Below the pieces are notes generated by a model, which saw only the letters and a program-made list of their open reading frames with translations, was not told the DNA's origin and searched no databases. A stretch of 64,000 bases of DNA from Dehalococcoidia bacterium (lineage in GTDB: Bacteria; Chloroflexota; Dehalococcoidia; UBA2979). Below, one piece after another: positions 33,701-64,000 of the stretch. Where the stretch lies: NCBI GenBank assembly GCA_965219085.1, contig OZ244720.1, positions 832,001-896,000 on the forward strand, in the 5' to 3' direction. The translations under genes were made by a program, and so were the position numbers. The first letter of the stretch is position 1. Every line of letters begins with the position of its first letter.

Positions 33701-33984
33701 CGTCGTCTTCGAGGGCGGCAGGATCGAGCAGTTGGTCTCCTGCGCGGAGAGCCGCCACGTCACGGCCCTCTACATCCAGCACAACGGCGAGTGGGTGTCC
33801 TACATCCTCGGGGCGCCGGAGTTCGCGAACCTCGAGTTCAGGGAGCTGTACGCCGACGGGCTGCCCGCCCTCACGCCGCTGGTCGCCAAGAGTGAGGGGC
33901 CTCCAGAAGCCAACTGACTTCTCTCCCCTGCCCTGCGCCTGTTTGGTTCGAGACCGAGTTGCCGGTCTTTCGGTCGACACCAGG

Positions 33985-39703: not shown

Positions 39704-42844
<3,141 letters not shown>

Positions 42845-42847
42845 GGA

Positions 42848-43201
42848 TTATTCCCGGAGTCGGATCCGTGAGTGCTCCACGATCCATAGCTGGCCCCTGG
42901 GGGATGACTCTTCCAGTCGCTCAATCAAGATGGGGGTCACCTCCAGGAGAGCATCCCGCGCTGCACTGGGTAGCCGGAACACGATGATGCCGGCATATTC
43001 CGCCGGCGGGTACGTTCGTATGTCTGAGAAATCCAGATCTTGCGTGACGAGCACCCGCTGCTCGGCGATACAGATCGCCGCTATCTCCGTGTCCGGGGCG
43101 CCGCCCAGGCCCTCGTCGACGACCGTGGCCGCGTCATGGCCGGACTCCGTAAACAGGCGCTTGAGCTGAATCGGCAGGTTCTCGTCGAGCTTGACCCGCA
43201 T
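42848..43201 (-). CDS. DUF5615 PIN-like protein
   Basis: KLDENLP...GHDA.TV...VLVTQDLDF. Confidence 0.85.
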   Translation of the reverse strand: MRVKLDENLPIQLKRLFTESGHDAATVVDEGLGGAPDTEIAAICIAEQRVLVTQDLDFSDIRTYPPAEYAGIIVFRLPSAARDALLEVTPILIERLEESSPRGQLWIVEHSRIRLRE

Positions 43202-43516: not shown

Positions 43517-43688
43517 GCCGTGCGAGGGCGTCGCGCAGGCGCTGTTCCAGCACGACGACGCCGTAGTCGGCGCGCTCCTCGCCGGGCGCGCCGGACGCGA
43601 TGTCGGGCCCGTGCGCGGTCTGCCAGCCAAGGTCGCCGAGCCACTCAAGCGCGGCGTCCTCGACATCGGCTTCGGTGAGGGTGGTCAT
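43517..43688 (-). repeat. Diverged duplicate of the first 172 bp of hsdR (copy of 42673-42844)
   Basis: [31 protein letters not shown] versus [31 protein letters not shown]. Confidence 0.88.
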
Positions 43689-43714
43689 GACCCGCTGTTC
43701 ACGCCTTTGACTAG

Positions 43715-45007
43715 CAGGGTGCTGAAAAAGGCGCGGCCATCTGGCAGGATAGCGAAGGCGGCGGGGGCGTAGCCTGGGAGGCAGCCCCGTGCGAGGCGAC
43801 GCCGAGCGCCAGACCAACATGTTGCTGGCGGTGACGCCGGACTCCTTCATCCCGGACGACCACCCGATCCGACGCATCAAGCCGATCGTCGATGCAGCGC
43901 TGCAGCGGCTCTCGCCGCTCTTCGGCACGATGTACGCAACGAGCGGGCGGCCCTCGATCCCGCCCGAGCACCTGCTCAAGGCGAGCCTGCTGATCGCGCT
44001 CTACTCGATCCGCAGCGAGCGCCAGTTCTGCGAGCGGCTGCGCTACGACCTGCTCTTCAAGTGGTTCTTGGACCTCAACATCTCAGACGCGCCGTTCGAC
44101 GCCTCGAGCTTCTCGAAGAACCGCGAGCGCCTGCTCGCAGCCGATGTCGCGCGCGCCTTCTTCGCCGAGGTGGTGGCCGAGGCAAAGCGCCGCCGGCTGC
44201 TCTCCGCCGAGCACTTCACCGTGGACGGGACGCTGCTGGAGGCCTGGGCCTCGCTCAAGAGCTACCGCCCGCGCGACGGGCAGGAGCCACCCCCGGGCGG
44301 ACGCAACCCGGACGTGGACTTCCGCGGGCGGCGGCGCAGCCGCGATACGCATAGCTCCGGCACCGACCCGCAGGCGCAGCTGTACACAAAGGGAGCGGGG
44401 CAGACGGCGAAACTGAGCTACATGGGCCATCTGCTCACCGAGAACCGTCACGGCCTGGTGCTGGACGTGGAGTTGACCGAGGCGAACGGGTACGCCGAGC
44501 GCGAGGCCGCGGTCACGATGCTGGAGCGCAGCGTGAGCGGCTGCGGGACGCTGGGCGCCGACCGCGGCTACGACACGCGCGACTTCGTGGCGGAACTGCG
44601 CGCGCGCGGCGTGACGCCGCACGTGGCGCAAAACGACCGCGGCCGCCGCAGCGCCGTGGACGGGCGCACCACGCGGCATCGCGGCTACAGGCAGAGTCAG
44701 CAGCGGCGCAAGATCGTGGAGCAGGTCTTCGGCTGGATGAAGACCGTGGGCGGCGGGCGCAAGCTGCGTTTCGTGGGCCGCGAGCGCAACCGCGGCTGGC
44801 TGGAGCTCACCGCCGCCGCCTACAACCTCGTGCGCATGGCCAGGCTCGAACTCGCCCCTGCGTAGGCGCAGTGCGCCCTCCGGCCGGTCCGGGAGCCCTC
44901 AGAGGCCCCCGGGGGCAGGTCAGGAGGCCACCATCACGAAGCCGGAGGCGGCTTCAAGCCGCCTCTCGCCACTCCGAGACCCCGGAAGGCGCTTCTTCAG
45001 CACCCTG
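43715..45007 (+). mobile_element. IS5-family element (1293 bp), copy 1, CTAG duplication
   Basis: IR CAGGGTGCTGAA; CTAG at 43711 and 45008. Confidence 0.95.
43789..44865 (+). CDS. IS5-family transposase
   Basis: GRPSIPPE.LL, FSKNR.R, VDGTL, ADRGYD, VEQVFGW.K. Confidence 0.93.
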   Translation: MRGDAERQTNMLLAVTPDSFIPDDHPIRRIKPIVDAALQRLSPLFGTMYATSGRPSIPPEHLLKASLLIALYSIRSERQFCERLRYDLLFKWFLDLNISDAPFDASSFSKNRERLLAADVARAFFAEVVAEAKRRRLLSAEHFTVDGTLLEAWASLKSYRPRDGQEPPPGGRNPDVDFRGRRRSRDTHSSGTDPQAQLYTKGAGQTAKLSYMGHLLTENRHGLVLDVELTEANGYAEREAAVTMLERSVSGCGTLGADRGYDTRDFVAELRARGVTPHVAQNDRGRRSAVDGRTTRHRGYRQSQQRRKIVEQVFGWMKTVGGGRKLRFVGRERNRGWLELTAAAYNLVRMARLELAPA

Positions 45008-46298
45008 CTAGATCCCAAGCGCGATCAGCCACGCTGACGCTCGCGTTACGGACTTCGATACGGACTGGTAGCACGGCCGAGATTGGCTCAGACAGATTCT
45101 CGGCGTGGATGACACACTCAAGCGCCCCTTCGATCTCGGCGTCGGTATAACTGACGAATATCTCGCTCCTGAAATACTCCTCGTCAGCGCCGTGGCGCCA
45201 CTGTGTGCATTCCAGGGCGTAGGAGTCCACCGGATCGTGAGGCAATCCGCCCTTGCAGTAGAAGCCATTCGGATCCCGTCGCTCACCTCCAATCTGCTGC
45301 GATCCCAAGAGTCCGCCCGCGTACAAGGAAGGCATGTCGAGCAGGCTGGGTGGCGACGGAAGGTACGTGCGCTCCCTTGAATCGGCGTAAAAGCTCCATT
45401 CGGAACGATGCGGCCGGATCCTGAAGTCACCCATCGCGGAAATGGCTACGAGCACGTCCTTACCCGGACGCGTGCCTGTGTTCGTCGCCACGATCTCGAA
45501 GGCAACGCCCTCCGACTCCACCTGCATCTCATCGTGAATGCTCCGGAGGATTTGCTCACATTCTGCCAACCAGCTCTGGTAAGCATCTGGTCGCATCAAC
45601 CACCCCACAGGTGGTGCGCGCCTCCTTAGTTCTCGCATGAGGCCAGTCAGTTCGTCGTCCGGAAGCGGGACGGGTACATGGTGAACCGCCCTGAGTTCTC
45701 GGATCTTCTGCCCCTCCTGATCCACGAAAGCCACATCGAAGTCCGGCCCAGCCTGTAGCCTCGCGATCTGCGTCCGGAGTTTCGCGTTCTCCCTCTCTGC
45801 CTGGCTCGGCTCCGGATCGCGTAGCCATGTTTCCGGGATTGAGATGAAGGGCAGACTGAGCGCTTGCGCCGTCATCAGGGCACCCGAGTCATCTGTCAGT
45901 AGCCGCGCGTCGTGCCGCGGGTTCTGTTTGAGATACTCGTACAGATGACCAACTATCGCGTCGTCGGCTTGGGTATAGTCGAGATTGCCCTCTAGCTCGG
46001 GGGCCGGCTTTCCGGGACCGCCCAAAAGAAGCTTGACTTGAGGATTGGCTTCCCGAACCAATACGTGGTTCTGTCCCGAGTCAATGATGCTCCGGAACAG
46101 TTGGTTGGCCTTTCGCGCTCGACGCCCGACGCGGTCGTTACCGCGGTTCTTCTGCTGGTCGATCTCGCGTTGGACCGGGCGGCTCACGATCAAGTGCACT
46201 TCCTGAAATTCTGCCCACGAAGACCAATCGAGCTCATCCAATGCCCGGCACTGGATGAAAAGGTTCGTGTCGGGAAACAGGTGGACGATTTGCTTCAC
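44997..46298 (-). CDS. PIN-domain nuclease inside the RM operon (last 8 codons replaced by IS sequence)
   Basis: FPDTNLF, VQREID, ADDAI, LLTDD acidic PIN tetrad; GTG 4 nt after the hsdS stop. Confidence 0.75.
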   Translation of the reverse strand: MKQIVHLFPDTNLFIQCRALDELDWSSWAEFQEVHLIVSRPVQREIDQQKNRGNDRVGRRARKANQLFRSIIDSGQNHVLVREANPQVKLLLGGPGKPAPELEGNLDYTQADDAIVGHLYEYLKQNPRHDARLLTDDSGALMTAQALSLPFISIPETWLRDPEPSQAERENAKLRTQIARLQAGPDFDVAFVDQEGQKIRELRAVHHVPVPLPDDELTGLMRELRRRAPPVGWLMRPDAYQSWLAECEQILRSIHDEMQVESEGVAFEIVATNTGTRPGKDVLVAISAMGDFRIRPHRSEWSFYADSRERTYLPSPPSLLDMPSLYAGGLLGSQQIGGERRDPNGFYCKGGLPHDPVDSYALECTQWRHGADEEYFRSEIFVSYTDAEIEGALECVIHAENLSEPISAVLPVRIEVRNASVSVADRAWDLAGC

Positions 46299-46302
46299 CG
46301 TC

Positions 46303-47571
46303 TCAAACTTCCGTGCTGCCGCGGGCGAGCTGTAATTCACCCGACACGAGGCGCGGTAGCAGTGCGTCCCGAAGATCAGCGATCGATCTTGAGAGTTCCG
46401 AGTTCGAATCGGACGAGGCGTAGAGAGGGTCGGTCAGGTCAGCGAAGCGGATGAGGACAGAGTCAGGCGGGACCGCGACGGCCTGCGCCTTGAGATCGCG
46501 TTGGGTGATGAGCGGCTGGGTTGAACCGCGGTTCAAGTTCGGCAAGTCTACCTCCCGAACGACCCCAACGAGCCAGCTGAACTCGGCGGGGCGGCTGGGA
46601 ATGATTACTAGAGTGTTGTCTGAAGGCCACACCGGGAAGCTCACGCGGTGCACGATCCCGAGAGTTCCGACACGCCCGGTGATTATGACCGGAGAAGAAT
46701 AGAGCGCCTCGTCTGCGTACGCCATCGCGCCGGCGCCCCCGAATATTGGGACGTTTGCAGTGGCCGAGGGCTGCGCGTGACGCTCGATCGGTCGTTTCCC
46801 GCTTGAGATGTCGGTTAGCTCCCCCAGCGCCTTCACCTCCCACCCTGCCGGTACCTCCCCCAGCTCCGACGCCTCGAACGATGCGGGGAACAGCGCGTCG
46901 AGGTCGGGCGGGAGGCCCGAGGGCCGGCCCTCGGCCTTCGCGCGCACCGGGTCGAAGTCCACGAACCACGACCGGAACAGCGCCCGCGCCATCTCCTCGA
47001 GCGTCTCGCTCATGCGCCGGTTCAGCTCGATCCGGTCGTCGAGCGCGCCGAGCACGCGCGCGATCGCGCGCTGCTCGTCTAGGGGCGGGATGCGGACCGG
47101 TATTGAAGCGAGGATTGACTGATTCAGAAGTGGCTGACCGGAGCCACTCCTGTGGTCGTTCAAGTTGAGGGCACGAAGGAGATAGAACAGAAACTTCGTA
47201 TTGTTCGTCGCGACCGCTCTCGAGCGAATGGCATTATCTGTTACCCAGCAAGACTCCTCGCTGTAGTGCAATGACCCGCAATAGCTTCCCACTCTTCCGA
47301 TAATGATGGTGCCTTCTGGAGAGTTTGCCTTGCTGGTAAACCCCATTACCCCATTGGCTCCGTACACGGGGACGGGCATCTGATCAGAGCGATCTGGACT
47401 TGTCGTGCCATTCGAGAAAGACATCACATCTCCGAGTGTCATCGCCTGCCACTTCCTCGCTGACGACTGACCTCCCTCAGGGACGAGTACTTGCAGCAGC
47501 CGACCAGCGTGAGCACGCTGACCGTCATCGTCTACCATTCGGCCGGTCCGACCAGATCCTAGATCTGTCAC
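46303..47571 (-). CDS. hsdS: Type I RM specificity subunit
   Basis: Two lower-GC TRDs (GRVG, GSGQP/GSTQP) separated by [10 protein letters not shown]...WFVDF; [14 protein letters not shown]. Confidence 0.92.
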
Positions 47572-49124
47572 GCGCCGTACCCCAACGCCTCCAGGTTCGC
47601 CTCGATCTCCGCGTCGAGGCGCTCGGCCTCGGCGCGCTGCTCGCGCCACTGCGCGGCGAGGCGCGTCATCTTCTCCTCAAACGGCTCGCCGTCGTCCTCC
47701 TGCGGCGCTGCGCCGACGTAGCGGCCCGGCGTGAGCACGTGCCCGTGCCGTCGCACCTCCTCGAGGTCCGCCGACTTGCAGAAGCCGGGTACGTCGACGT
47801 ACTCGCCGGCGCCCTCCTCGCCGCGCCACGCGTGGTAGGTGTCGGCGATGAGCGCGATGTCCTCGGTGGTCAGTTCGCGGTGCGTGCGGTCGGTCATGCG
47901 GCCCATCGCGCGGGCGTCGATGAACAGCACCTCGCCGCGGCGGTCGCGGAACCGGCCGTTGCGGCGGTCGCGCGCCAGGAACCACAGGCACGCCGGGATT
48001 TGCGTCGAGTAGAAGAGCTGCCCGGGCATCGCGACCATGCAGTCGACCATGCCCTCCTCGACGAGCCGCTCGCGGATCTCGCCCTCGCCGCGCTGGTTCG
48101 AGGACATCGAGCCGTTGGCGAGCACGAAGCCGGCGATGCCCGCCGGTGCGAGGTGGTGGACGAAGTGCTGCACCCACGCGAAGTTCGCGTTGCCCGCGGG
48201 CGGGACGCCGTACTGCCAGCGCTGGTCGTCGGCGAGGCGTTCGCCGCCCCAGTCCGAGACGTTGAACGGCGGATTCGCGAGGATGTAGTCGGCCCGGAGG
48301 TCCGGGTGGCGGTCGTTGTGGAAGCTGTCACCGTGGGCGATCTGGCCCTCGATGCCCCGGATCGCGAGGTTCATCTTCGCGAGTCGCCAGGTGGTGTGGT
48401 TGGACTCCTGGCCCCAGATCGAGATGGGCGCGCTCGCCTTCCCGCCGTTGCCGTTCCCGGTCGCATGGGCTCGAATGAACTCGAGGGACTGCACGAACAT
48501 CCCCGAAGAGCCGCAGCAGGGATCGTAGACGCGGCCCTCGTACGGTTCGAGCATCTCGACCAGCAGCCGCACCACGCTGCGCGGTGTGTAGAACTCGCCG
48601 CCCCGCTTGCCTTCTGACTCCGCGAAGCGGGAGAGGAAGTACTCGTACACGCGCCCCAGCACGTCCCGCGATCGGGCGTCCTCGTCGCCCACGACGATGT
48701 TGCTGACCTGGTCGATCAACTGGCCCAGGCGCTGCTTGTCGAGCGCTGGGCGGGCATAGTCCTTCGGCAGGACGTCGCGCAGCGCAGGGTTCGCTTCCTC
48801 GATGGCGGTCATTGCTTCGTCGACCGTCTGCCCGATGGTCGACTGGCGGGCCTGCGCCTGCAGCACGGACCAGCGCGCCTCCTTCGGCACCCACAGGATG
48901 TTGCGAGCGAGGTACTCGTCGGGATGATCGGGGTCCGCGCCCTGGTCGCGCTCAGCCTCGAGCTGCGCGCGGGTCTCCTCGAAGGCGTCGGAGACGTACT
49001 TGAGGAAGATGAGCCCGAGCACGACGTGCTTGTACTCACCGGCGTCCATGCTGCCGCGCAGCGCGTCGGCCATCTCCCAGAGTTCGGCCTCGTAGCCCGT
49101 GGTGACGCTGTTGTCGCTGGTCAT
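47568..49124 (-). CDS. hsdM: Type I RM methyltransferase subunit
   Basis: [22 protein letters not shown]; probable start ATG at 49124. Confidence 0.95.
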
Positions 49125-49210
49125 GGCGTGTTCACCTCGGGGCCGGACCGAGCAGGTCTGCAACGGCATCGAGGCCGACGGATGTCGCCTCGAGCCGCTG
49201 GACGGACAGT

Positions 49211-50287
49211 CTACCGGTCCGGGCCCGGACCTCCGTCCCACTGCCTGAATTCCTCGGGCAGGATCGTCAGAAGCGCGTCCGGTTCCATCCCATACACGTC
49301 GTGGGTGCGCTCGAGCTGGTCGAGCACGCGGATCAAGTGGCGGAGACCGCCACGGCTGAAGTTGAAGCCACGCTTCTGCTGCGCACCATGCGTGTACAGG
49401 CGCAGGATCAACGGCACGATTCCGACCGAGTTGAAGACGCGGATGGCGCCAAACGACCTCTGTGCTATATCGCCCCACCACGTCAGGTCCTTGTCGAGGA
49501 GGAACCCCGCGCGCTCCCCCTGCTGTTCGTAGAGACGCCACGACCCCCAGAGGTAGTGCCGGAACCGCAGCTCGTACGAACGGGAGGCGCCATCCCGGCG
49601 ATCGACGACGAACGTCTCGTCCAGCGGCGACAACTGGACGGCGCCGTTCTCCCGGCGCGCCGTCTCCGCGAAGTAGAACAAGCCCAACCACGACCAGACA
49701 CCGGCGTGGTCGGCCACCAGGTGCGCGACCGGTTTCAGCAGCGGCTCGAAGTACTCCGCGACTTCTCGACGCGCCCGGAACGGGCGTCGCTCCACCTCGA
49801 TCTCACCGACGAACCGGGCCGCGTAGCGCTCGTCGTAGAGCAGATCGGGCGGCGGTTCCATCGCGCCGGTGGGGTCGTCGCGGAGGTCCGTGAGGAACTC
49901 GCGTGCACGCTCGATGCCGTCGGGCGTGAGCCGGCGCAGCCGCTGGCGCTCGACCCGGCGGGGCTGGCAAAGACCCGTCCGGGCGGTTTCGGCCAGCTCG
50001 TCGATCTCCCGCGACAACGACTCCCGGGGCTGTGACGGCGTGGAGGGGGTCTCGACGCCGAGGAGCTGGGCGGTGAGCACGTCGATGGCCTGGTTGATCC
50101 GGGCCAGCATGGTCGCCCGGCGCACCTTGTGGCCCGGCACACCTGCTGCCTCGACGAAGGCGCCCCATGCAGGTGTCCCGGGCTCTGCATAGTCCCGGAG
50201 GTTCACCCGCCGGGGTGCGCCTTCCTCCCCCAGTGCGTCGCGGATCTCGCGGAGTCTCGACAGCGCTTCGGGGCCGTGGTCGTTCAT
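49211..50287 (-). CDS. Hypothetical protein, gene C of the GHKL cassette
   Basis: 358 aa; [22 protein letters not shown] motifs; ATGA coupling to gene B. Confidence 0.75.
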
Positions 50288-51063
50288 GAGCTGCGGCCGT
50301 GCAGCGCGTTGTTGTAGGCATCGGCGGCGTCAAGACGAACGTCTGCGAACGCGGCCACCACGCGGTCGACCCAGCGGTTCGCGTCGGCGAGGTCGGTGTC
50401 CGTCGTCCCTTGATGCTGCAAATGAGGAGGCTCCGCGTCGGGGAGCAGTGCGCGGGCGATCTCGAACCATCCTCCCCATGGCCCTTCATCGTCGTCGGGG
50501 TCCTGGCGTTCTACGAGCACGACATGCGCGAGGATCGTTCGCAGCACATCCGGCATCACGAGCGAACGGAACTCCTCGTTGCTGCGAACGATCTCGCTGA
50601 TGCCTTCCACGGACGGGTTGATCAGCAGTTCGGGCCGGTCCATCCCGTCGCCGAAGTCGACGCGCCAGACCTCGTCACCCAGTTCTTCGCTCTCACGCAC
50701 CGGGAGAAGGGACCGGCGCGGTAACACCGGGCGAATATTCGGCGCGTGGCCGAGCAGCAGTCCCGAGCCGTCGCCGGCCACGACGATCACCCGGAACTGC
50801 GCCGAAGCGGGCACATCGGTCAGCTGCCGCTCCTCGTCACTGGGCGGCTCAAGGGCACCGGCCGTGCCGTAGTCCCACCGCTGGACTGCGTTACTGCGCC
50901 ACGCCTCCACGCGCACGCGGGCGCCGTCCGGGAAGCCATAGCTCGACAAGTCGAGGCTCGCGTCGAAGATCGCTGGGTCGTCGCCCTCGGGAGCGCGCAC
51001 GGACACCTGTGCGTGGTTCCGCGTGATCCGCCTCCGCCCCGTGCTATTGAGCCGACTCCTCAT
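50284..51063 (-). CDS. Hypothetical protein, gene B of the GHKL cassette (259 aa)
   Basis: Starts MRSRLNSTGRRRIT; ATGA overlaps at both ends. Confidence 0.75.
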   Translation of the reverse strand: MRSRLNSTGRRRITRNHAQVSVRAPEGDDPAIFDASLDLSSYGFPDGARVRVEAWRSNAVQRWDYGTAGALEPPSDEERQLTDVPASAQFRVIVVAGDGSGLLLGHAPNIRPVLPRRSLLPVRESEELGDEVWRVDFGDGMDRPELLINPSVEGISEIVRSNEEFRSLVMPDVLRTILAHVVLVERQDPDDDEGPWGGWFEIARALLPDAEPPHLQHQGTTDTDLADANRWVDRVVAAFADVRLDAADAYNNALHGRSS

Positions 51064-53039
51064 GAGGAACCGTCCCCATCCGTCGCGTCGTCGGATGACT
51101 CGACACGTTGCATGTCGACGATCACATCTCGATCGTCGAGGCCGGTCACGTCGAGACGCACGGCGTCGGCGAGGACCCGGAACCTGATCATGTTGTCCTC
51201 CGTGCGCTCGACCTCTGCGGAGCGCGAGAGAACCTCGACTTGCCCCGGTTCGATCGAGAAGTCCGGGACACCCCGTCTCGCGCCCTGATCGAACAGGCTG
51301 AACGCGTTGCCGCGGACGACGTCGTAGGCGAATCGCAGCGTCCACTCCGAGCCGACGAGGTCGGCTCCTCGTGGTGTGGTCACGGAGAACCCGGACTCCG
51401 TTCGGCTCGCATTCAGGACGGGCGGCGGGGGCGGCGGAGGTGGCGGTGGGGGAGGGCCGCCGCCCCGGCGGCCGCTCGGAGTGCGGCTGCGGATGTCCGC
51501 TGGATCGGCCGGGAACAGGTCCGCGAGGGCATCGAATTGCTGCTCGTCGGGTCGCTCGGCGAGGCGCTGCAGCAGCAGTACTGCCGCTCGCCTCACTTCC
51601 TGGACGCGGCTGTACCCGCCGACCCAGTGATCCTTGAGACGTTGCTCGTGCGGATCCCACGAGATGTGCGCCGGCCCCTCGGAGTCTCTGAGCAGGTGCG
51701 CCAGCTCCGACTCTCCGTCGACCACTACGAGAACTCGGGCCTTGTAGCGCGTGATGTGATCCATTCTGGGGATGCTGAGGTGACCGCGAACGAAGTAGTC
51801 GTGTCCGCTCGATAGGCCGTCGGCTCGCTCGATGTAGAGCCGGAAGCTGGTAGCCGTACGCTGCGACGTACTCTTCCTCTGGACCCGCGTCTCGAGCGTG
51901 AACGCCAAGCGTTCGCCGCGCTCGTAGCGTTCGCGCAGGTCTTCCAAGTCGAGCAGGTCCAGGGTGTCGTTCGTCCTTGTTGGCACTTGCAGTGTGACGT
52001 GCGCCCCGTCGTCCAGCTGAATTGCCCACTGTGCCAACCGGATGACTCCCGCGAGCGAGTCACGTGACTCCTCGTCGTGAGCGTCCTCACCGGGGGGCAT
52101 CGGGATGTCGACGACTTCGCGAGCGATCGTGTCGGCGCTGATGGTTCGCTGTCGCTCACCGGGCGCGCGGATCTCGACTGTGAGGTCGCCACGCACGATC
52201 GGCAAGAAGTATTGCGTGATGACCGCCCGCGCGATCGAACCGAGTGTGAGTTCTTGCTTCGGGTAGGGCACGATCACCGACAGGCCCGGATGGTCCAGCC
52301 TATCGAGCCCGAAATCCATGAGCGTTTGCAGGACGAAGTCGGGGTCGTCCCGGGAATTGATCGGGAGCGGGAGCCACTCGTCGTCTCGTGTATCCGTCTC
52401 AGCGGCCAACTGGCCATAGGGCGGGTGCTTCGTCCCGTTGACGGTGTGCGTCCTCAGTACCGCCATCCCCATGAGTAGCGTGTGATCTTCGCCTGCACGC
52501 CGGGTCGCGCCGAGGTACGCGTTGACCATCGAGGCATCCGGGAAGACCCACTTTCCCAACCCCCACGACCCGCCGGCGTCCTCGCCCTTGGGTGAGATCC
52601 CGATGCTCCGAAAGAAGCCCCAGAAGTGGTTGTCGGGCTCGTTCGCGTCGTTCGCCTCGATGTCGCCAGCAAGGCCGGTCGTGCCGAAGTCCTCGACCGT
52701 GACCCATGGCATCGGCCCGGCCAGGGAAGCCAAAGCCTCGTCGATGCTTTCACGCTCTGCAGCGTCGGCGCTCGGATCGGCCTGGATGTGAGGGGCGAGC
52801 TCGCCGAGATAGCGGGCAGCGGCATCTACACTGAGGGCGTCGGTCTCGCCGCTGAAGGTGAACCGCACCCTCACGGGTTCATTCCCTTGTCGGGCGTCCA
52901 GCGAATTCTGAAGCGACTCTCGGACAACGCGCTCAGAGAGATCTGAAGCGGAGGTGAAAAACTCACCCTGTACAGGATCCTGGTTGATCTCCGACGGCAT
53001 CATGCGCCGGAATCGCCATCGCGGTTGTCCCGAATCCAC
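51060..53039 (-). CDS. GHKL-type (MORC/HSP90-like) ATPase, gene A of the cassette
   Basis: RESLQNSLDA, EDFGTTG, GGSWGLGK boxes; poly-Pro linker; GGAGG before GTG at 53039. Confidence 0.75.
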   Translation of the reverse strand: MDSGQPRWRFRRMMPSEINQDPVQGEFFTSASDLSERVVRESLQNSLDARQGNEPVRVRFTFSGETDALSVDAAARYLGELAPHIQADPSADAAERESIDEALASLAGPMPWVTVEDFGTTGLAGDIEANDANEPDNHFWGFFRSIGISPKGEDAGGSWGLGKWVFPDASMVNAYLGATRRAGEDHTLLMGMAVLRTHTVNGTKHPPYGQLAAETDTRDDEWLPLPINSRDDPDFVLQTLMDFGLDRLDHPGLSVIVPYPKQELTLGSIARAVITQYFLPIVRGDLTVEIRAPGERQRTISADTIAREVVDIPMPPGEDAHDEESRDSLAGVIRLAQWAIQLDDGAHVTLQVPTRTNDTLDLLDLEDLRERYERGERLAFTLETRVQRKSTSQRTATSFRLYIERADGLSSGHDYFVRGHLSIPRMDHITRYKARVLVVVDGESELAHLLRDSEGPAHISWDPHEQRLKDHWVGGYSRVQEVRRAAVLLLQRLAERPDEQQFDALADLFPADPADIRSRTPSGRRGGGPPPPPPPPPPPPVLNASRTESGFSVTTPRGADLVGSEWTLRFAYDVVRGNAFSLFDQGARRGVPDFSIEPGQVEVLSRSAEVERTEDNMIRFRVLADAVRLDVTGLDDRDVIVDMQRVESSDDATDGDGSS

Positions 53040-53170
53040 TGTTGACCCTCCCCATCCGTCGTCAGTGGGCAACCCTATGCCGTATCACGTACGGAGATCA
53101 ATGTCGCGAGCCTCGGAATAATGCGCGTAGTCGGCGGGCTGCGCCCGCGTCAGTTCATCGTGGTTCGGCG

Positions 53171-54990
53171 CTACCTGACTCCCGCCAATGCACCCTCGCC
53201 GGCCAGCGCCAGCACTTCGGTCTCCGCGTACCGCTTGAACGCCTCGGCGCTCGTGAAGTGGCGGAACCCGTGGTCGTTCGCGATCTGTAGTGTCTCCTGC
53301 TCCTCGCCGAGCAGCAGCGCCACCGGCTCGCTGTAGCCCTGTTGCAGGCCGTTCGGCCAGGCAAGGTCGAGGATGGCGAGCGGGTCGCCGGTATCCGGGT
53401 GTGCAAGTTCGTGCTCGATCTGGCCCTCGGGGAGTCCCTGGCTGCGTACCCAGTCGTTGATGGCTCGGAGGGCAGCCTCCTCCTCGGCGTCTTCGATACC
53501 GCCGGGGATCGTGGCCGGCTCGCTGGCCTTTCCTGCAGCCGCTGCTACCGGCTCCCCCGACTCGATGGCCGGGGCGCCGTGCAAGAGGTCGTCCAGGAGT
53601 GCGTTTGCGGCCTCGGCGAGTAGTCGCTGCCGCTCCTCGAGGAATCGCGGGTAGTTCTCCGTCTCCCAGAGCTCCCGGTCCATCGGTATCCATTGCGACG
53701 CGAGCGCGCCGGGGTGACGCTCCTCGATCTCCGGGAAGTACTCGGCTGGTGGGCGGTCGCTGATCTGGAGATTGGTGTCCTTGGTCAGGAAGCAGAAGTT
53801 AGCGACGGCGTTGACCTGCGACCTCTGGAAGCCCGCGCGGTACAGCAGCGCCTTCGGGAAGATGTGATGCACCTCGAGGGCGTTCATGCGGCCCAGCAGC
53901 GTGTGCTTGAGCGCGAGCCCCGTGCCCCAGTCCTGTGCTTCGCCGACGCGCGTGAGCGCGTACAGGACGGGGTAGAAGCGGGCCCCGAGGCTCCAGCCCC
54001 GGAAGTGCGCTGGCTCGACCCGGAGGCTCCCGTGCCAGAGCCTCAGTTGCTCGATCAGCTGCTCGATGCCGCGGTCGACGTCCTCGATCGCCTCGAAGTC
54101 CTGGTCGAGCACGGTCTCGGTCGAACCGGAGAAGCGGCCCCACATCGCACTCTGGAAATACCAGTAGAGCAGCCGGTCTTGCTCGGCGGCGCCATGTAGG
54201 TGGCCGCCACGACGGTCGATGTACCGAGACATCACGGGCAGTGCGTAGCGCCCGAAGAGCACGCGGTCGTGGTCGAGCCCAAACCGGCCGGCGATGAGGT
54301 TCAGGACGTAGTCGACGCGCTGTTCCGCGCGGGCGAGGCCCTCCCGGACGGCGTCGGTGGACGAGTCGTGGAGGTGCGCGAACCGCGCCTCGCCCGTCAC
54401 GATCGCGTTCACGTTGCGGAGCAGCCAGTCGAGGTTGAAGTCGTACCCACTCTCGCGCCAGCGCTCGAGGATCGACTGCATGCGCTCGCGCCCTTCGGGC
54501 CACGAGCCGCAGATCTTCGCGAGGGCGAGGTCACCCTGCGAGAGCTTCGTGCCGCCGCTGTTGACCCGATTGAAGATGTCCACGACCACTTCGATGGTCT
54601 TGTCGGCACCCGTCACCTCCTCGATGTGAAGGTCGATCTCGCGGATCCCGATGATGTTGTTGAGGCACCCGATGAACTCGCCCTGCATGTCGGCGAACTG
54701 GGGCAGCTGACCGAAGCGGGTGATGTGCTCTCCGAGCCCCGTGTGCCCCGCCTGCATCAGCTCGGAGACATTGATCCAGAGTGGATCGTCCCGCATGAGC
54801 AGCTGCTGGTAGAAACGGAACTCCTCGCTCCCGATGTGAAAGTAGAGGTCGGTGAAGGCTCGCGCGTTGCCGTCAAAGAAGTCCGGCGGCGCGCCCCGGA
54901 TGATGCCGTAGAGCGAAGTGATGCGCTGTTGCCCGTCGAGCAACAGCCGCACGACACCCGGCGCGAGCTCCTGCTCGCCCCGATGCCTTG
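53171..54990 (-). pseudogene. DUF262 / GmrSD-like modification-dependent nuclease, apparently 5'-truncated
   Basis: LDGQQRIT, IFNRVNSGG..L, EVHHIFP, NFCFL...N; the DUF262 N-terminal QR..W segment is missing. Confidence 0.75.
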
Positions 54991-55685: not shown

Positions 55686-57650
55686 TCATCCGGCTCCTCC
55701 GCGAAGTCCAGGGCTGGTCAGATCCCGGTGCGAAACGGGGGGTGTGCCGGGGACGCAGCTCCAAGGCTCGCGCTGCATGAGGGTACCGTCGGCGTCGGTG
55801 CCGGCCCAGCTGGCGCTGGCCGGCTCGATCTCGCGGCAATGCTCGATCTTCGCTGTCCTGACGCACTTCCCGTCGAGGACGTAGCTCGTGGCGGACGCGA
55901 CCTTGTGCATCGTTTCGTCCAACGCGATGCGATCGGTCGCGTACATGCCCATCCGCATTTCGTCATCCATCTCGTCGTCGAACGGCCGGCCAAACGCGGC
56001 TTCCGCGTCGGTAACGTCATATAGCAGCACGTGCTCCACGGTGTGGCCCTCGACGATCACGGCGACCCAGCGAACCTGCACGCCGCCGATCTCCACCAAC
56101 CGTTCGGTGACCGATGCCACCTTGCGCACGTCCCTCGGCTCGGGTTCGTAGACGAGGAGCCCGAGCACAAGCTCGTACAGGTCGTCCGCCATCGACGTGA
56201 TCTCATCAGCCATCGTGAGTTGCTCGCGCCACGCGGCCGGAATGCCGTCGACCCCGTAGTACGCCCCGGCGATCTGACCGTAGATCGCGGCAGTCGTATC
56301 GGCGTCGCCGCCGAGGTTCGCCGCGAGCAGGGCGCCTTCGCGGAAGTTGTCCGAGTGGTGGAACGCCCAGAGCGCCGCCTCGATCGACCGAACGACGTAA
56401 CCGGTGCCCCTGATCTCCGGCGGGTTGCGATTCTTGAAGGAGCCGTTGGCGATGCGGGCAATCGCCTCCACCAGCGGATGGCTCTCCCATAACCCCTCGA
56501 CAGGGCAGTAGCCAGCGGAGAGGAGCGTCTCCTTGCCGACGTCACCAAGCGCGCCGACGAGCAGGCCGGCGAAGTAGCGGCAGGCGTCGACCGCCTCCCG
56601 CGCCCCGTGCGTCGTCCGGGAACTATCTGCCGCCTTGGTGATGGCATCGGCCGGGTGGCCCCAGTAGTACATCGGGACCGGCGCAAGCCGCATGAGGGAG
56701 CCGTTCCCCGCGGTCTGCGAGTCCGTGGAACCGGCGTACGGGTCGGCGTCCCGCTCGAAGCGAGACAGCGCATCCCTCACCGTGGTCCCGATGTCGAAGC
56801 ACCGGCCTGTGGAGGACAGGTAGCCCTCCCGCCACCACCGCACGTAACGCTCCATCTGGTCGGTGGGGTCGAAGCCCTTCTGTTCGATCAGGCTTGTCGC
56901 GAGGCACAGTGCCATCGACGTATCGTCGGTCCACTGGCCGGGCTTCAGTCCGAACGGGCCGCCGCCGACCATGTCGTCGATCGCTTCGAACGTGCCCGGC
57001 GGCTGGAACTCGAGCGTGGTGCCGAGGGCGTCGCCCGCAGCCAGACCGAGCAGGCAGCCCCGGAATCGATCCAGTGTGGTGATCTCACTCATTGGGCTCT
57101 CCTCCGGTGAAGGCTCCGTCCATTCGCGGACGTAGCGGAACTGCTCGGATGTCTCGGGCGACTGCGGCTTGCGGCGGGCCTTCGCGACTCCCTGCCACCA
57201 CTCCGCGAGCTGTCTCAGCGCCTCGTCGCCCGTCCGCCCGTGCCGTACCAGCCAGCAGCCGACGACGGTGCCGGTCCGTCCGACCCCGCCCCAGCAGTGG
57301 AGGTAGACGGTCCCTTCTTCGTCCAGAGCGTCGTCGATGGCGTCGAGGATGTCGGCCATCTCCTGGGGGCTGCCGGGCACGCCCACGTCGACGATCGAAT
57401 GCCGCTCATGCGCGACGTCCATGCCAAGACCGTCGGCTTCCGCTTCGGCGATGTCGGTGTATGGCTCCAGCCCTTCGCTGGGCTCGGTCAGATCGATGAA
57501 GTGGTCGATGCCCGCGCTCAGCAGCGTGCGGAGCCTGGCTGCGGCCTCGTTGCGGTGCTTGTCGCCCGGGTACTCGCCGGCGGCGAAGCGGCCGGGGACG
57601 ACCCAGTAGCTGTTGGGGATCGGGCGATCAGAGCTGCCTGCGGGGTTCAA
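55686..57650 (-). CDS. Fusion: dual-specificity/Tyr phosphatase + ADP-ribosylglycohydrolase + unknown C-terminal domain
   Basis: HCWGGVGRTG (CX5R); GDALG, WTDDT, GNGSLMR, GGDADTT. Confidence 0.88.
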   Translation of the reverse strand: MNPAGSSDRPIPNSYWVVPGRFAAGEYPGDKHRNEAAARLRTLLSAGIDHFIDLTEPSEGLEPYTDIAEAEADGLGMDVAHERHSIVDVGVPGSPQEMADILDAIDDALDEEGTVYLHCWGGVGRTGTVVGCWLVRHGRTGDEALRQLAEWWQGVAKARRKPQSPETSEQFRYVREWTEPSPEESPMSEITTLDRFRGCLLGLAAGDALGTTLEFQPPGTFEAIDDMVGGGPFGLKPGQWTDDTSMALCLATSLIEQKGFDPTDQMERYVRWWREGYLSSTGRCFDIGTTVRDALSRFERDADPYAGSTDSQTAGNGSLMRLAPVPMYYWGHPADAITKAADSSRTTHGAREAVDACRYFAGLLVGALGDVGKETLLSAGYCPVEGLWESHPLVEAIARIANGSFKNRNPPEIRGTGYVVRSIEAALWAFHHSDNFREGALLAANLGGDADTTAAIYGQIAGAYYGVDGIPAAWREQLTMADEITSMADDLYELVLGLLVYEPEPRDVRKVASVTERLVEIGGVQVRWVAVIVEGHTVEHVLLYDVTDAEAAFGRPFDDEMDDEMRMGMYATDRIALDETMHKVASATSYVLDGKCVRTAKIEHCREIEPASASWAGTDADGTLMQREPWSCVPGTPPVSHRDLTSPGLRGGAG

Positions 57651-58786: not shown

Positions 58787-59758
58787 GGAGGGCGTCTCGA
58801 CCCGCCGCGTCGACGACCTCGTGCGCTCGCTCGGCTGTGAGGGCATCTCGAAAAGAGCCAGGTCTCGAGGATCTGCGCAGAGCTCGACACGGTCGTCGCG
58901 AGCTTCCTCGGCCGGCCGCTCGACGGCGGTCCCTACCCCTACCTGTGGCTCGACGCGCTCACGCAGCGGGTGCGCGAGGAGGGCCGCATCGCTCAGGTCA
59001 GCCCTGCGGGGTATCCCCGCGTACGCGGGAAGGGTGGTCGCCACCGCGGTCAACGCCGAGGGCAAGCGCGAGGTGCTGGGCATCGACGTCGGCACCAGCG
59101 AGGACGGGGCGTTCTGGCTAGCGTTTCTGCGCGGGCTCGTGGCACGAGGGCTCTCCGGTGTGGAGTTGGTGACCTCCGACGCCCTCAGGGCCTCAAGGAG
59201 GCGATCGCGACTGTCTTCGGCGGCGCCTCGTGGCAGCGCTGCCGCACGCACTTCATGAGGAATCTGCTGACGCGCGTGCCGAAGAGCGCCGAGGCGCTGG
59301 TGGCGACGACGGTGCGCACGATCTATCAGCAGCCGTCGGCGGAGGCGGTGCACGCCCAGCACGCCCGGGTGGTGGAGCAGCTGGACGCGCGCTTCCCCGA
59401 TGCCGCGGTCATGCTCGCCGACGCGGCCGCGGAGATACTGGCGTTCACGGCCTTCCCGGTCGCGCACTGGAAACAGGTCTGGTCGAACAACCCGCTGGAG
59501 CGGCTCAACAAGGAAATCCGCCGGCGCACCAACGTGGTCGGCATCTTCCCCAACCGCGCCGCGGTGGTCCGGCTGGTCGGCGCCGTGCTCGCCGAGCAGC
59601 ACGACGAGTGGGCGGTCGCGAGGCGCTACATGACGATGGTGACGCTGCTGCCCCCGCCGGGGCTCACGGCCGCGTCAGGCGAGGAGGTGCTGCTGCAGGC
59701 TGCCAGCTAGCAATTGATAAGGATGGTGCACTGTGACACCACCTTGCGGGACGTGACC
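58787..59758 (+). mobile_element. 5'-truncated, frameshifted IS256-family element related to 16074-17439
   Basis: EGVSTRRV...NNPLERLNKEIRRR...EEVLLQAAS; right IR ...GGGACGTGACC. Confidence 0.85.
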
Positions 59759-59895: not shown

Positions 59896-60984
59896 ATGCA
59901 GCAGGATATCGCAACGACGCGGAGCATCGAGGGCAGGGATGGGCCTGCGTTCACCGTCGGCCTCGACGTAGGAGACCGCTACATCCACGTCTGCGTCCTC
60001 GGCAGCGGCGGCGAGGTGGTGCGCGAGCGGCGCGTCCGCACCACGGCGGCGGCGCTCGGCGGCGCACTGGAGGACCTTCCGCCGGCGCGGGTCGTGCTCG
60101 AGGCGGGGCCGCGCTCGCCGTGGCTGAGCCGCGTCGTGGCGGATCTCGGCCACGAGGCGGTCGTCGCCAACCCTCGCCAGGTCGCGCTGATCGCCCGCAG
60201 CCAGCGCAAGACCGACCGCCTCGACGCCGCATGGCTGGCGCGGCTGGGGCGCTTCGACCCGGAGTTGCTCGCCCCGATCCGCCACCGCAGCGAGCAGAGC
60301 CAGCATGACCTCGCCGTGGTGCGCGCCCGCGACGCGCTGGTGCGCTCGCGCACGCTGCTCATCAACCACATGCGCGGGGCCGTCAAGGCCTGCGGCGCCG
60401 CGCTGCCGTCGTGCACGGCCGAGGCCTTCCACCGCAAGGCGGCGGAGCACATCCCCGATGGGCTGCGCCCGGCGCTGCTGCCGCTGGTGGAGGCGATCGG
60501 CGAGCTGACCGCGCGTATCGCGGCGGCCGGGCGGGAGGTCGAGGCGTTGTGCGAGGCCCACCCCGAGACCGCGGCGCTGCGCCAGGTCACCGGCGTGGGG
60601 CCGATCACCGCGCTCACGTTCGTGCTGACGATCGAGAACCCGGGGCGCTTCCCGAAGAACCGGGAGGTGGGGGCCTACCTCGGGCTCGTACCGCGGCAGC
60701 GCGAGTCTGGAGAGCGCGCGCCACAGCTCCGGATCAGCAAGAGCGGCGACGCGGGCTTGCGGCGGCTGCTGGTGCAGGCCGCGCACTACATCCTCGGTGC
60801 CTTCGGACCCGATACCGACCTGCGCCGCTGGGGTGAGCGCTACGCGGGAACAGGGGCGGGCAACGCGAAGAAGCGCGCGGTTGTGGCTGTCGCACGACGG
60901 CTGGCGGTGCTGCTGCTCGCGCTGTGGAAGACAGGGGAGTTCTACGAGCCGCTGCGCCACGCCGTGGCCCGCGAGGCCGCGTAG
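59896..60984 (+). CDS. IS110/IS1111 DEDD recombinase
   Basis: VGLDVG, LEAG, KTDRLDA, GVGPITA, YLGLVP.Q.ESG. Confidence 0.93.
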   Translation: MQQDIATTRSIEGRDGPAFTVGLDVGDRYIHVCVLGSGGEVVRERRVRTTAAALGGALEDLPPARVVLEAGPRSPWLSRVVADLGHEAVVANPRQVALIARSQRKTDRLDAAWLARLGRFDPELLAPIRHRSEQSQHDLAVVRARDALVRSRTLLINHMRGAVKACGAALPSCTAEAFHRKAAEHIPDGLRPALLPLVEAIGELTARIAAAGREVEALCEAHPETAALRQVTGVGPITALTFVLTIENPGRFPKNREVGAYLGLVPRQRESGERAPQLRISKSGDAGLRRLLVQAAHYILGAFGPDTDLRRWGERYAGTGAGNAKKRAVVAVARRLAVLLLALWKTGEFYEPLRHAVAREAA

Positions 60985-60989
60985 CGGGG

Positions 60990-61240
60990 AGGCGCCGCCG
61001 CCGCCGGCGCAGCAGACCCGGAGATCAGGAAGGAAGACCCGATCGCGAACGAAGCCACGCACGTGATGCCGAACACGGGCGACTGCGGCCGAGCTGCTGT
61101 CCCATCGAGGACGTCCACCAGCTGGCAGCGCCCCCTGGAAGCAGGATGTGCCTTCATGCACCGGGCCCGATGCGCGGCCCACAGACGAGTGCGGATAGAA
61201 GCTCGGCACAGGCTCCTCTGTTCGGAGATAACGCGCAGGC
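60990..61240 (+). ncRNA. Putative bridge/seek RNA (boundaries approximate)
   Basis: Target-matching GAGCTGCTG (61091-61099) and CCACCAGC (61115-61122) flank a GTCC/GGAC hairpin; donor-matching ATAGAAG (61195-61201) lies inside a TGTGCC/GGCACA stem. Confidence 0.7.
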
Positions 61241-61243
61241 GCG

Positions 61244-61395
61244 AGGTGGATGAGGCGCCACGCCGCCCGGGCAGGGAGGCCGCCACGTCGGCCTTGCAGA
61301 TCAGACCGTCCCTCATAGAAGGTGGATGAGGCGCCACGCCGCCCGGGCAGGGAGGCCGCCACGTCGGCCTTGCAGATCAGACCGTCCCTCATAGA
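61244..61395 (+). repeat. Exact 2 x 76-bp tandem repeat of the IS right end
   Basis: 61244-61319 equals 61320-61395. Confidence 0.92.
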
Positions 61396-62631
61396 AGCAG
61401 CTCGTCCGGGACCGCACCCGCCAGACCAAATCTGTACGTGGGTGATGACTGGGCCGAGGAGCACCACGATGTCCACCTCATGAACGAAGTGGGCGGACAG
61501 CTTGCTGCCAGGCAGTTGCCGGAGGGGGTTCGGGGCGTTACCGCGCTGCACGAACTGCTCGCGCAGCATGCATCAGAACCGGGCGAGGTCGTCATCGGTA
61601 TCGAGACCGACCGTGGGCCGTGGGTGTCCTCATTGCTCGCCGCCGGCTACCGCGTCTACGCAGTCAACCCGCGCTCAGTGGCCCGCTATCGCGACCGTCA
61701 CCACGTCGGCGGCGCGAAGTCCGATGCCGGCGACACGAAGCTCTTGGCCGACCTGGTACGCACGGACCGTCACAACCACCGCGAGGTCGCCGGCGACACC
61801 GACGAGGCTGCGGCTGTGCGCATCCTCGCACGCGCCCACCAGCAGTTTATTTGGGACCGCACGCGACAAACCAATCGGCTCCGCAACGGGCTCCGAGAGT
61901 ATTTCCCGGCGGCCCTGGAGGCCTTCCACGACCTCGCTCACGGCGACGCGGTGGGCGTGCTGGCAACGGCCCCGGACCCGCGCGCGGCGGCGCGGCTGAC
62001 CATGCCGCAGATCCGGGCCGCCCTCCGTCGAGGTGGCCGCCAGCGGTACATCGACCGCCGCGCCACCGAGATCCGCGACGCGCTGCGATCCCCGCAGCTC
62101 GAGGTGGCGCCCGTGGTGAGCAGTGCGTTCGCCGCGACCACCAGCGCGGTGGTAGGCCAGATCGGCCAGATCAATCATCGGATTAAGGAACTCGAGGCTG
62201 AACTGGCGAGCCATTTTGAGCAGCACCCGGACGCCACGATCTACCGCTCCATGCCCGGACTCGGTGTCGTGCTCGGCGCCCGGGTGCTCGGCGAGTTCGG
62301 GGATGACCCCGAACGCTACGAGTCGGCGAAGTCCGCAGGAACTACGCCGGCACCTCGCCGCTCACCGTAGCATCGGGGCGCAAGCGCACCGTGAAGGCCC
62401 GCTTCATCCGCAACCGGCGGCTCTCCGACGCCGCCAACCACTGGGCGATGTGCTCGCTGCGCGCGAGCCCGGCTTGCCGCGAGTTCTACGACCCGCGGCG
62501 CGCCGCCGGCGACCTGCACCACCAGGCGCTGCGTGCCCTCGGCAACCGCCTCGTCGGCTACCTCCATGGCTGCCTCAGGAATTGCACCCTCTACGACGAG
62601 GCCATCGCCTGGGCCCACCGTTCGGCTCTAG

Positions 62632-63924: not shown

Positions 63925-64000
63925 CTAGAACAACCCGCCGCTTGACGGCTTAGGACCATGGGATGTCTACGCCCGCCCCTACTGCTCCAATGCCGAACGT

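Follow-up and report, generated by a model that had tools for sequence, protein, structure and literature searches.

Related systems and the operon of the window

The closest described counterpart of the locus analysed here is PDC-M33, a PADLOC candidate that is itself a prediction and uncharacterised, and that, judged from its sequences, is a three-gene cassette encoding a GHKL ATPase, a B protein and a DUF6339 protein. More remote are Topo VI-B, GyrB, MutL and MORC, for which ATP-driven dimerisation and DNA clamping are established. The locus itself consists of three genes, A, B and C, in a stretch of 64,000 nucleotides (nt) from a Dehalococcoidia bacterium (contig OZ244720.1, positions 832,001 to 896,000), the whole of which is called the window below. 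It is read here, tentatively and with somewhat less than even confidence, as the operon of a GHL ATPase, a divergent sister of PDC-M33, in which an ATP-gated DNA clamp with two partners would restrict phage or plasmid DNA.

Among defence systems with a GHKL component, MzaABCDE, reportedly described by Gao et al. in 2020, is said to be a restriction-modification (R-M)-like system with a MutL-type GHKL protein. The window trio resembles it in having a GHKL ATPase in a defence-island setting, and one PDC-M33-type plasmid has an AIPR gene directly upstream. In contrast, A matched no Mza model in PADLOC, in agreement with an earlier note, made from the DNA letters alone, that had held the trio to be distinct from Mza.

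Topo VI-B is the best structural match of A and has the same GHKL and transducer domains, whereas its sequence identity to A is only 8-11%. The trio also differs from Topo VI in having no Toprim/5Y-CAP (Topo VI-A/Spo11-like) partner; B and C had no Pfam match, and the model of C had no neighbour in the PDB.

In the passages of Iyer, Abhiman and Aravind (2008, PMC2292703) that deal with them, MORC and paraMORC ATPases with GHKL and S5 modules occur in R-M-like operons, and paraMORC2 has an ExxxH motif at the C-terminal end of its S5-like module. By this description alone A can be likened to paraMORC2, as it combines a GHKL module with an S5-like transducer and has an invariant ExxxH (E454...H458) at the same position; plasmid relatives of A adjoin Dcm and Vsr genes, a further likeness. 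However, compared with the operons of those passages, the window family has two proteins outside the known families instead of a conserved superfamily II helicase or restriction-endonuclease-fold nuclease partner, and no Pfam HATPase model matches A. Scans of the neighbours of the window trio with Pfam and PADLOC revealed no helicase or Vsr partner. A last relative is the GHKL-Shedu protein VcSduA, whose N-terminal GHKL ATPase is proposed (PMC12137116) to control its effector. The ATPase is likewise N-terminal in A, but in VcSduA it is fused, within one protein, to a DUF4263 PD-(D/E)xK nuclease, a domain that PADLOC and Pfam did not detect in the trio.

Genes A, B and C constitute one translationally coupled operon. 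They are three minus-strand open reading frames (ORFs), co-oriented and arranged head to tail (Table 1), in a window of approximately 65-75% G+C. At each junction the stop codon of one gene and the start codon of the next share a 4-nt ATGA overlap, seen as TCATGA at 51060-51063 (A stop/B start) and at 50284-50287 (B stop/C start), so that coordinates and junctions confirm the description in the earlier note of three co-oriented genes with two ATGA overlaps, located between a DUF262 gene and hsdM. The GTG start of A is supported by its homologues, because they begin at the same position, with the N-terminus 'xxxPRWRFxRM'. No promoter-like site was found in 48900-53400, and the single terminator-like match in that region (plus strand, 50290-50305) was within chance expectation. 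No transfer RNA was detected in the window, and Rfam gave no match near the trio.

Protein A and its two partners

Matches of the predicted model of A to Bergerat-fold and transducer domains, together with its invariant motifs, identify the protein as a GHL-type ATPase, with the predicted ATPase motifs intact. The alignment of 41 A sequences showed E41, Q44, N45 and S46 of motif I to be invariant, as were D117, T120, G122, L123 and G125 of motif II, and G157 to G162 plus W164 of motif III. G119 was at least 90% conserved in this set, and so were D48 and A49, which were invariant in a 20-sequence alignment. The ExxQNxxD, DxGxxG and GSWGLG boxes that had been read from the sequence were therefore confirmed, at E41-D48, D117-G122 and G157-G162, respectively. 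A further signature at the end of the transducer (Table 1) is invariant or nearly so among the relatives of A, with E454-GPA-H458 invariant in the 41 sequences, and it is also carried by PDC-M33A-type proteins, with the consensus 'LR..Epp.H..w'.

The model of A was built from the family alignment, with a predicted local distance difference test score (pLDDT) of 84.8 and a predicted template modelling score of 0.72. Between the transducer signature and a disordered stretch (pLDDT <50 at residues 510-513 and 515-531) that includes the 12-proline run, the model has two long helices. A beta-rich domain follows, with Y572, D593, F594, N616, G633, R637 and D638 as conserved residues, which bears out the poly-Pro linker and separate C-terminal domain proposed in the earlier note.

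When this model was compared with the PDB by Foldseek, 194 matches were obtained at an expect value (E) <= 0.001. The top match was Topo VI-B (E 9e-11, template modelling score 0.44-0.47 on the target, ~580 columns), followed by Hsp90/GRP94/TRAP1, GyrB 43K, MORC2 and SMCHD1; alignments to the listed chains of Topo VI-B, GyrB 43K, Hsp90 and MORC2 covered ~510-590 columns, with E from 9e-11 to 1e-5. The GHKL fold was thus upheld at the level of predicted structure. Sequence libraries were far less informative: A had no match in Pfam or NCBIfam, including no Pfam HATPase and no Hsp90 model, and single-sequence and profile searches against PDB sequences gave low-complexity or chance matches only. 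One A-family member matched PD-Lambda-2_A (E 0.008), and this match was set aside as chance because PD-lambda-2 is a HigB/HigA-peptidase toxin-antitoxin-like system (PMC9519451).

As the earlier note had said, neither B nor C has a motif to which a name could be given, and this held in Pfam, NCBIfam, PADLOC and PDB searches as well as in the Foldseek search with C. Protein B is most conserved at its N-terminus, M-x-R-R-x-N-x-T-x-R-x-x-I. It had no match in Pfam, NCBIfam, PADLOC or the PDB, the single-sequence and profile searches of the latter giving chance or low-complexity matches only, and in the ESM Atlas it fell only in unnamed 'hypothetical protein' clusters. Its family is large: at E <= 0.001 the B profile matched 2,044 of the clusters, made at 50% identity, that 1.84 billion representatives stand for, 894 of them at E <= 1e-30, and nearly all of the 150 matches listed were ~250-265 amino acids (aa) long.

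For protein C a confident model was obtained (pLDDT 91.6), for which Foldseek gave no match at E <= 0.001 either in the PDB (best E 1.5) or in BFVD (best E 0.45). No match to C was found in Pfam, NCBIfam or PADLOC, PDB sequence and profile searches gave chance or low-complexity matches only, and nothing in the ESM Atlas scored above 0.80. A BrxC match of two C-family members (E 0.028) was set aside as chance. Extensions at the N- or C-terminus of C occur in some lineages only, that of the window being N-terminal and ~115 aa long, and eight relatives (L005, L007, L009, L011, L013, L017, L018 and L043) reach 456-589 aa with such additional regions. No fused domain was recognised by Pfam at E <= 1e-5 in 13 longer variants (318-589 aa), and no long fusion of C (628-2000 aa) was found, which is weak evidence. 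The alignments of B and C showed no evident nuclease, Toprim, HEPN or other effector motif. In a complex prediction in which B was the partner of A (residues 300-659) and C (residues 110-358), one control was not separated from the score.

Conservation of the trio and its relation to PDC-M33

A search for relatives of A, with scoring limited to the 8,000 candidates that had the most words in common, returned at least 684. Among the 120 listed, identity was 49-91%, for most over near full length, and none had a Pfam domain or an informative name. In parallel, one genome per species, for 185,579 species, was scanned with two strict search patterns, one of them the motif III peptide of A, and 113 stretches encoding an A relative were found. 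The best 80 of these 113 were kept and gave 75 distinct loci, on which the locus counts below are based.

Relatives of B and C adjoin A in 71 of the 75 loci, or in 71 of 73 if the two loci at contig ends are left aside. The four exceptions are these two (L032 and L041, which end at a contig edge), L051, which holds a fragment of A only, and L053, which has fragments of B and C. The loci span seven phyla: Chloroflexota, Gemmatimonadota, Acidobacteriota, Pseudomonadota, Nitrospirota, Thermodesulfobacteriota and Actinomycetota. Automatic calling recovered the full set of three genes in 68 loci. The A/B overlap is 4 nt long in 44 of them and 1 nt long in nine, and the B/C overlap is 4 nt long in 35. 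Gene order can vary, as C lies upstream of A in L027 (7219-7935) and in L035 (tblastn match 2999-3847).

Eight called ORFs had internal stops or boundary errors, and rows with internal stops were dropped from the alignments. When compared with the closest relative, L004, genes A, B and C had ratios of nonsynonymous to synonymous substitution rates (dN/dS) of 0.094, 0.049 and 0.105, respectively, with dS at ~0.8; against L002 and L003 the ratio was 0.19-0.37. Therefore, by their conservation, their linkage and their low dN/dS, A, B and C are genes under purifying selection that travel as a unit. The proposal in the earlier note of a coupled cassette is thereby strengthened, with B and C present in 71 of 75 related loci and dN/dS at 0.05-0.10.

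In a maximum-likelihood tree, 72 A proteins grouped for the most part by phylum, with eight label changes against a minimum of six. The exceptions are three Acidobacteriota rows that nest in a Chloroflexota clade, and two Pseudomonadota rows that nest in Chloroflexota and Gemmatimonadota clades with support of at least 95; binning errors could explain some of these cross-phylum placements. In 54 of 67 loci the trio had a lower G+C content at third codon positions (GC3) than its flanks (median -0.066), which is only a weak sign of foreign origin because the flank caller selected high GC3 in GC-rich loci.

The sole PADLOC match of the window's A was PDC-M33A (E 5.4e-15), over residues 35-200 only, and the same model was matched by all 41 A-family members scanned (best E 8e-30). 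When A was aligned with PDC-M33A types by hhalign, the match extended over 427 columns (E 1e-42, probability 100%) and included the LR..E...H..W signature. The corresponding alignment of C with seven DUF6339-type proteins was weak (E 4.9e-4, probability 32%, 163 colinear columns), and that of B with PDC-M33B types gave E 0.012, a probability of 3.6% and 80 columns, compared with E 0.47-0.81, a probability of 0.1% and 14-58 columns for mismatched control pairs. None of 35 B members matched the PDC-M33B models at E <= 1, and none of 34 C members matched the PDC-M33C models; the window's own B and C gave no match to these models either.

Searching 72,556 plasmids with A by tblastn gave nine records, with 24-33% identity over the GHKL part, and in all nine an A-like gene of ~630-670 aa is followed by two genes. 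Eight have the PDC-M33-type layout, with following genes of ~280-360 aa and 230-280 aa. The trio of the Arthrobacter agilis plasmid pAAG24-152, at L076 5708-9453, matches PDC-M33A end to end (3.5e-82) and PDC-M33B (6.4e-30), and its third gene matches both PDC-M33C (1e-31) and Pfam DUF6339 (3.9e-34). The ninth record, the Rhizobium leguminosarum plasmid pRlX5, has at L078 4788-8350 a trio of the window's own family, with A 29% identical, C 24% identical over residues 117-350 and a B of 260 aa. A Dcm gene is a neighbour in five of the nine plasmid loci, three of those with Vsr and/or a type II endonuclease as well; Dcm and Vsr occur together in two, a Shedu gene in one of the nine and the AIPR gene mentioned above in one of the nine.

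In three PDC-M33-type plasmid loci, from Arthrobacter, Paenarthrobacter and Deinococcus, the GHKL gene is immediately preceded by a small ORF of ~62-76 aa (L076 5708-5935, L079 4749-4937, L081 4747-4977), which may be a fourth component.

Both families consist of three co-oriented, overlapping genes encoding an ATPase of ~630-660 aa, a B of ~260-350 aa and a C of ~230-280 aa; their A proteins share homology over the N-terminal 450-500 residues, signature included, and both families occur beside R-M and other defence genes. They differ in the N-terminus of B, which is SYPHPVL-like in PDC-M33 and MxRRxNxTxRxxI in the window family, in the domain at the C-terminus of the window's A, which lies outside the hhalign match, and in that none of the PDC-M33B or PDC-M33C models is matched by B or C of the window. 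On these comparisons the trio is a divergent sister lineage of PDC-M33, with A clearly homologous and the same layout. Its C is possibly homologous to the DUF6339 component, and its B would either have replaced the PDC-M33B counterpart or have diverged from it beyond recognition. Through the homology of A to PDC-M33A, the trio does have a relative among catalogued systems. The statement in the earlier note that no named system matches it holds in part: PADLOC gave no full match, since B and C escape the PDC-M33 models, whereas A matches a catalogued protein, PDC-M33A, in a cassette of the same layout.

Gene neighbourhood and possible function

The neighbours of the trio were surveyed in the 68 loci, with up to three called ORFs per side (399 ORFs in total), which were clustered and their representatives scanned against Pfam (121 + 78 proteins, plus 13 C variants; singletons at the third position per side were omitted). 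A defence-type neighbour was present in 26 of the 68 loci (38%); that this exceeds expectation is an argument from general knowledge of defence-gene density. These neighbours include R-M/N6_N4 methylases, hsdM, hsdR, hsdS, GmrSD_N, Schlafen, TIR+SLOG, DUF4011 helicases, Type ISP, Eco57I, HNH, PDDEXK_4, Abi_C, ParE, Fic, WYL and Uma2. Only mobile-element or regulator neighbours were found in five more loci. Relatives of the window's own neighbours occur in only 11 of the 75 loci, and those of its hsdR, hsdS or hsdM in only nine, mostly at 23-31% identity. The trio adjoins a type I R-M locus in the window, in L004, where the same junction with hsdM is found and hsdM is 93% identical, and in L064, from another phylum, where an hsdR 73% identical stands beside the trio.

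The trio is thus a genuine conserved module and a credible, still unproven candidate for a defence system. Its mechanism would probably be that of an ATP-gated DNA clamp, by analogy with the proteins that A resembles. Like Topo VI-B, MutL and MORC, protein A would dimerise on ATP, and it would clamp or loop DNA as its substrate. Through translational coupling B and C would be made in step, or in fixed proportion, with A, with which they would form a complex, acting as its specificity or effector subunits. Together the three proteins would either restrict phage or plasmid DNA that enters the cell or set off growth arrest, and in the window the trio would travel within a type I R-M island. The effector activity may sit in the invariant H448/D452/E454/H458 cluster of A, in the acidic cluster of its C-terminal domain, or in C.

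Several points weigh against such a defence role. No phenotype is on record for the trio, and no relative of A was found in 50,697 phage records. Library and PDB searches with the three proteins turned up neither a nuclease nor any other recognisable effector domain. In 37 of the 68 loci Pfam showed neither a defence nor a mobile-element neighbour, and the surroundings there were of a housekeeping kind, such as SecA, PrfB, fumarase and CoA-transferases; the 26 loci with a defence-type neighbour, for their part, are counted without a proper genomic background rate. The tree of A is largely congruent with phylum and less patchy than those of many defence systems. As for the link to PDC-M33, B has no significant sequence likeness to PDC-M33B and its N-terminal signature differs, C is only weakly like DUF6339, and no mention of PDC-M33 or DUF6339 was found in the literature searched.

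The features of the window are collected in Table 1. The DUF262 gene upstream of A covers positions 115-593 of the 600 of the HEC-05 profile and 61-198 of the 199 of the Pfam model; it begins just before the DGQQR motif, ~60-110 N-terminal residues short compared with the profiles, and no frame upstream matched the missing part. The earlier note had regarded the neighbouring genes as decayed, which is right for this truncated gene and for an IS-disrupted stretch (IS, insertion sequence), whereas hsdM, hsdS and hsdR match their profiles strongly.

Table 1. Genes, protein motifs and neighbouring features of the trio in the window
Feature	Position	Strand	Description	Basis
Gene A	51060-53039	minus	659 aa, GTG start	ORF and translation
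Gene B	50284-51063	minus	259 aa	ORF and translation
Gene C	49211-50287	minus	358 aa; conserved core residues 117-350 at 49238-49939	ORF, translation and alignment
Ribosome-binding site of A	53047-53051	minus	GGAGG, 7 nt 5' of the GTG start	Read in the sequence
GHKL motif I (N-box)	52893-52919	minus	E41-SLQNSLD-A49, fits ExxQNxxD	Alignment
GHKL motif II (G1 box)	52665-52691	minus	D117-FGTTGLA-G125, fits DxGxxG	Alignment
GHKL motif III (G2 box, ATP lid)	52548-52571	minus	G157-SWGLGK-W164	Alignment
Transducer-end family signature	51657-51704	minus	L446-x-H448-LLRD452-x-E454-GPA-H458-xx-W461, ExxxH motif	Alignment
Poly-Pro linker of A	51420-51455	minus	12 proline codons, residues 529-540, flexible	Sequence and model
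C-terminal beta-rich domain of A	51105-51413	minus	Residues 543-645	Model secondary structure and conserved columns
DUF262/GmrSD_N-like gene	53174-54952	minus	5'-truncated, upstream of A	PADLOC HEC-05 and Pfam
hsdM	47571-49124	minus	Type I methyltransferase, 86 nt downstream of C	Pfam N6_Mtase 8.5e-105, PADLOC MTase_I 4e-217
hsdS	46306-47649	minus-strand series		Strong profile match
PIN_4 protein	45000-46340	minus-strand series	After hsdS	
IS copy	43711-45018		Between the PIN gene and the DUF5615 gene	
DUF5615/PIN-like gene	42851-43201		Next to hsdR	
hsdR	39707-42844	minus-strand series		Profile match end to end
Dual-specificity phosphatase + ADP-ribosylglycohydrolase fusion	55689-57650	minus	654 aa, apparently intact; no PADLOC match	

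The window also holds mobile elements and repeats. Two 1308-nt IS copies, at 43711-45018 and 62621-63928, are 100% identical and inverted, with a DUF772 + DDE_Tnp_1 transposase; the 17.6 kb between them contain hsdM, hsdS and the PIN gene as well as the trio, together with the DUF262 remnant and other IS fragments, an arrangement that resembles a composite transposon. The 173 nt with which hsdR begins (42673-42845) recur at 90% identity immediately left of the IS copy (43517-43689), which suggests a remnant of a second hsdR 5' end. Further along, 59896-62370 holds two IS110-family transposase ORFs, with a perfect 76-nt tandem duplication at 61244-61395 and, on the opposite strand, a match to the Rfam small RNA Ms_AS-4 at 62250-62331. 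Inverted repeats of 85-96% identity at 16074-17015 and 58788-59758 are copies or fragments of IS256 (Transposase_mut). Very long ORFs made of ~294-nt repeats occupy 1-2633, 9499-16962, 23782-29793 and 30576-33917; the stretches 951-2603 and 32313-33914 are 85-96% alike, and by appearance these are paralogous repeat-domain proteins.

A more far-reaching version of the defence reading would make the trio a new kind of immunity against phages or plasmids: an ATP-gated clamp like those of Topo VI-B and MORC would have two partners of new fold, and a new effector chemistry would be placed either in one of the partners or in the His/Asp/Glu/His cluster of A. Together with PDC-M33 the trio would then define a large bacterial and archaeal superfamily missed by current defence finders. 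This is clearly less probable than the simpler form and, taken as a whole, rather unlikely.

Outside defence, the explanation that survives best, an improbable one by our estimate, is a lineage-specific DNA-maintenance module, in which a MutL/MORC-like clamp with two accessories serves repair, recombination or nucleoid organisation. It would fit the 37 of 68 loci that lie among housekeeping genes, the tree of A, which goes mostly by phylum, and the strong purifying selection. The layout of A (N-terminal GHL module, Pro-rich linker and C-terminal domain) resembles that of MutL; MutL was not among the 50 Foldseek matches of A listed. However, a family found in 113 stretches in 185,579 species is rare, even with search patterns as strict as those used, and the Acidobacteriota and Pseudomonadota rows inside Chloroflexota or Gemmatimonadota clades (support of at least 95), the plasmid relatives beside R-M, Shedu and AIPR genes and, as a weak indicator, the lower GC3 of the trio in 54 of 67 loci all speak against it.

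Alternatively, the trio could be a selfish module linked to mobile elements, either addiction or toxin-antitoxin-like or engaged in competition between elements, which would persist by harming cells that lose it. The 17.6-kb segment between identical inverted IS copies in which the window trio lies, the relatives on plasmids, the ParE, Fic, PIN and transposase genes among the neighbours and, with the caveat on the flank caller, the low GC3 are all compatible with this. But in none of the three proteins did PADLOC, Pfam or NCBIfam reveal a domain known from toxins or antitoxins, an ATPase of 659 aa would be unusual in an addiction module, and many loci have no mobile-element gene within three genes, so we consider it quite improbable.

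The trio could also assist the type I R-M enzyme next to it, for instance by loading, regulating or extending HsdMSR, but this is very unlikely: C does end 86 nt before hsdM on the same strand, the junction recurs in L004 with hsdM 93% identical, and in L064, from another phylum, an hsdR 73% identical lies beside the trio, but hsdR, hsdS or hsdM relatives were found in only nine of 75 loci, mostly at 23-31% identity, and most loci have no R-M gene nearby. Least probable of all, and barely to be entertained, is A as an Hsp90-like chaperone directed at proteins, with B and C as co-chaperones or clients, as the strong Foldseek matches to Hsp90, GRP94 and TRAP1 (E 3e-7 to 1e-5, lowest root-mean-square deviation ~10-12 Å) are surpassed by Topo VI-B (E 9e-11), the neighbours are DNA-directed (R-M, Dcm/Vsr, GmrSD and Shedu) and no Hsp90 Pfam model matches A. 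Indeed, nucleic-acid immunity is preferred to protein folding because both lineages keep DNA-directed company, namely type I R-M in the window and Dcm, Vsr, restriction endonuclease, Shedu and AIPR genes around PDC-M33.

If restriction of phage or plasmid DNA by the trio is the right reading, a widespread family that PADLOC models do not call, with 2,044 clusters for the B profile alone, would be added to the known anti-phage systems, and the candidate PDC-M33 would gain a second, very divergent branch. Comparison of the two branches singles out three essentials, namely the GHL module that A contains, its LR..E...H..W signature and the three-gene layout. As the confident model of C has no PDB or BFVD neighbour, its structure and activity would be new biochemistry. 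The GHL clamps MORC, SMCHD1 and Topo VI-B/MTOPVIB act on eukaryotic chromatin and in meiosis, according to the relevant passages of Iyer et al. (2008, PMC2292703), and for this reason an immune GHL relative in bacteria would bear on the origin of the eukaryotic clamps.

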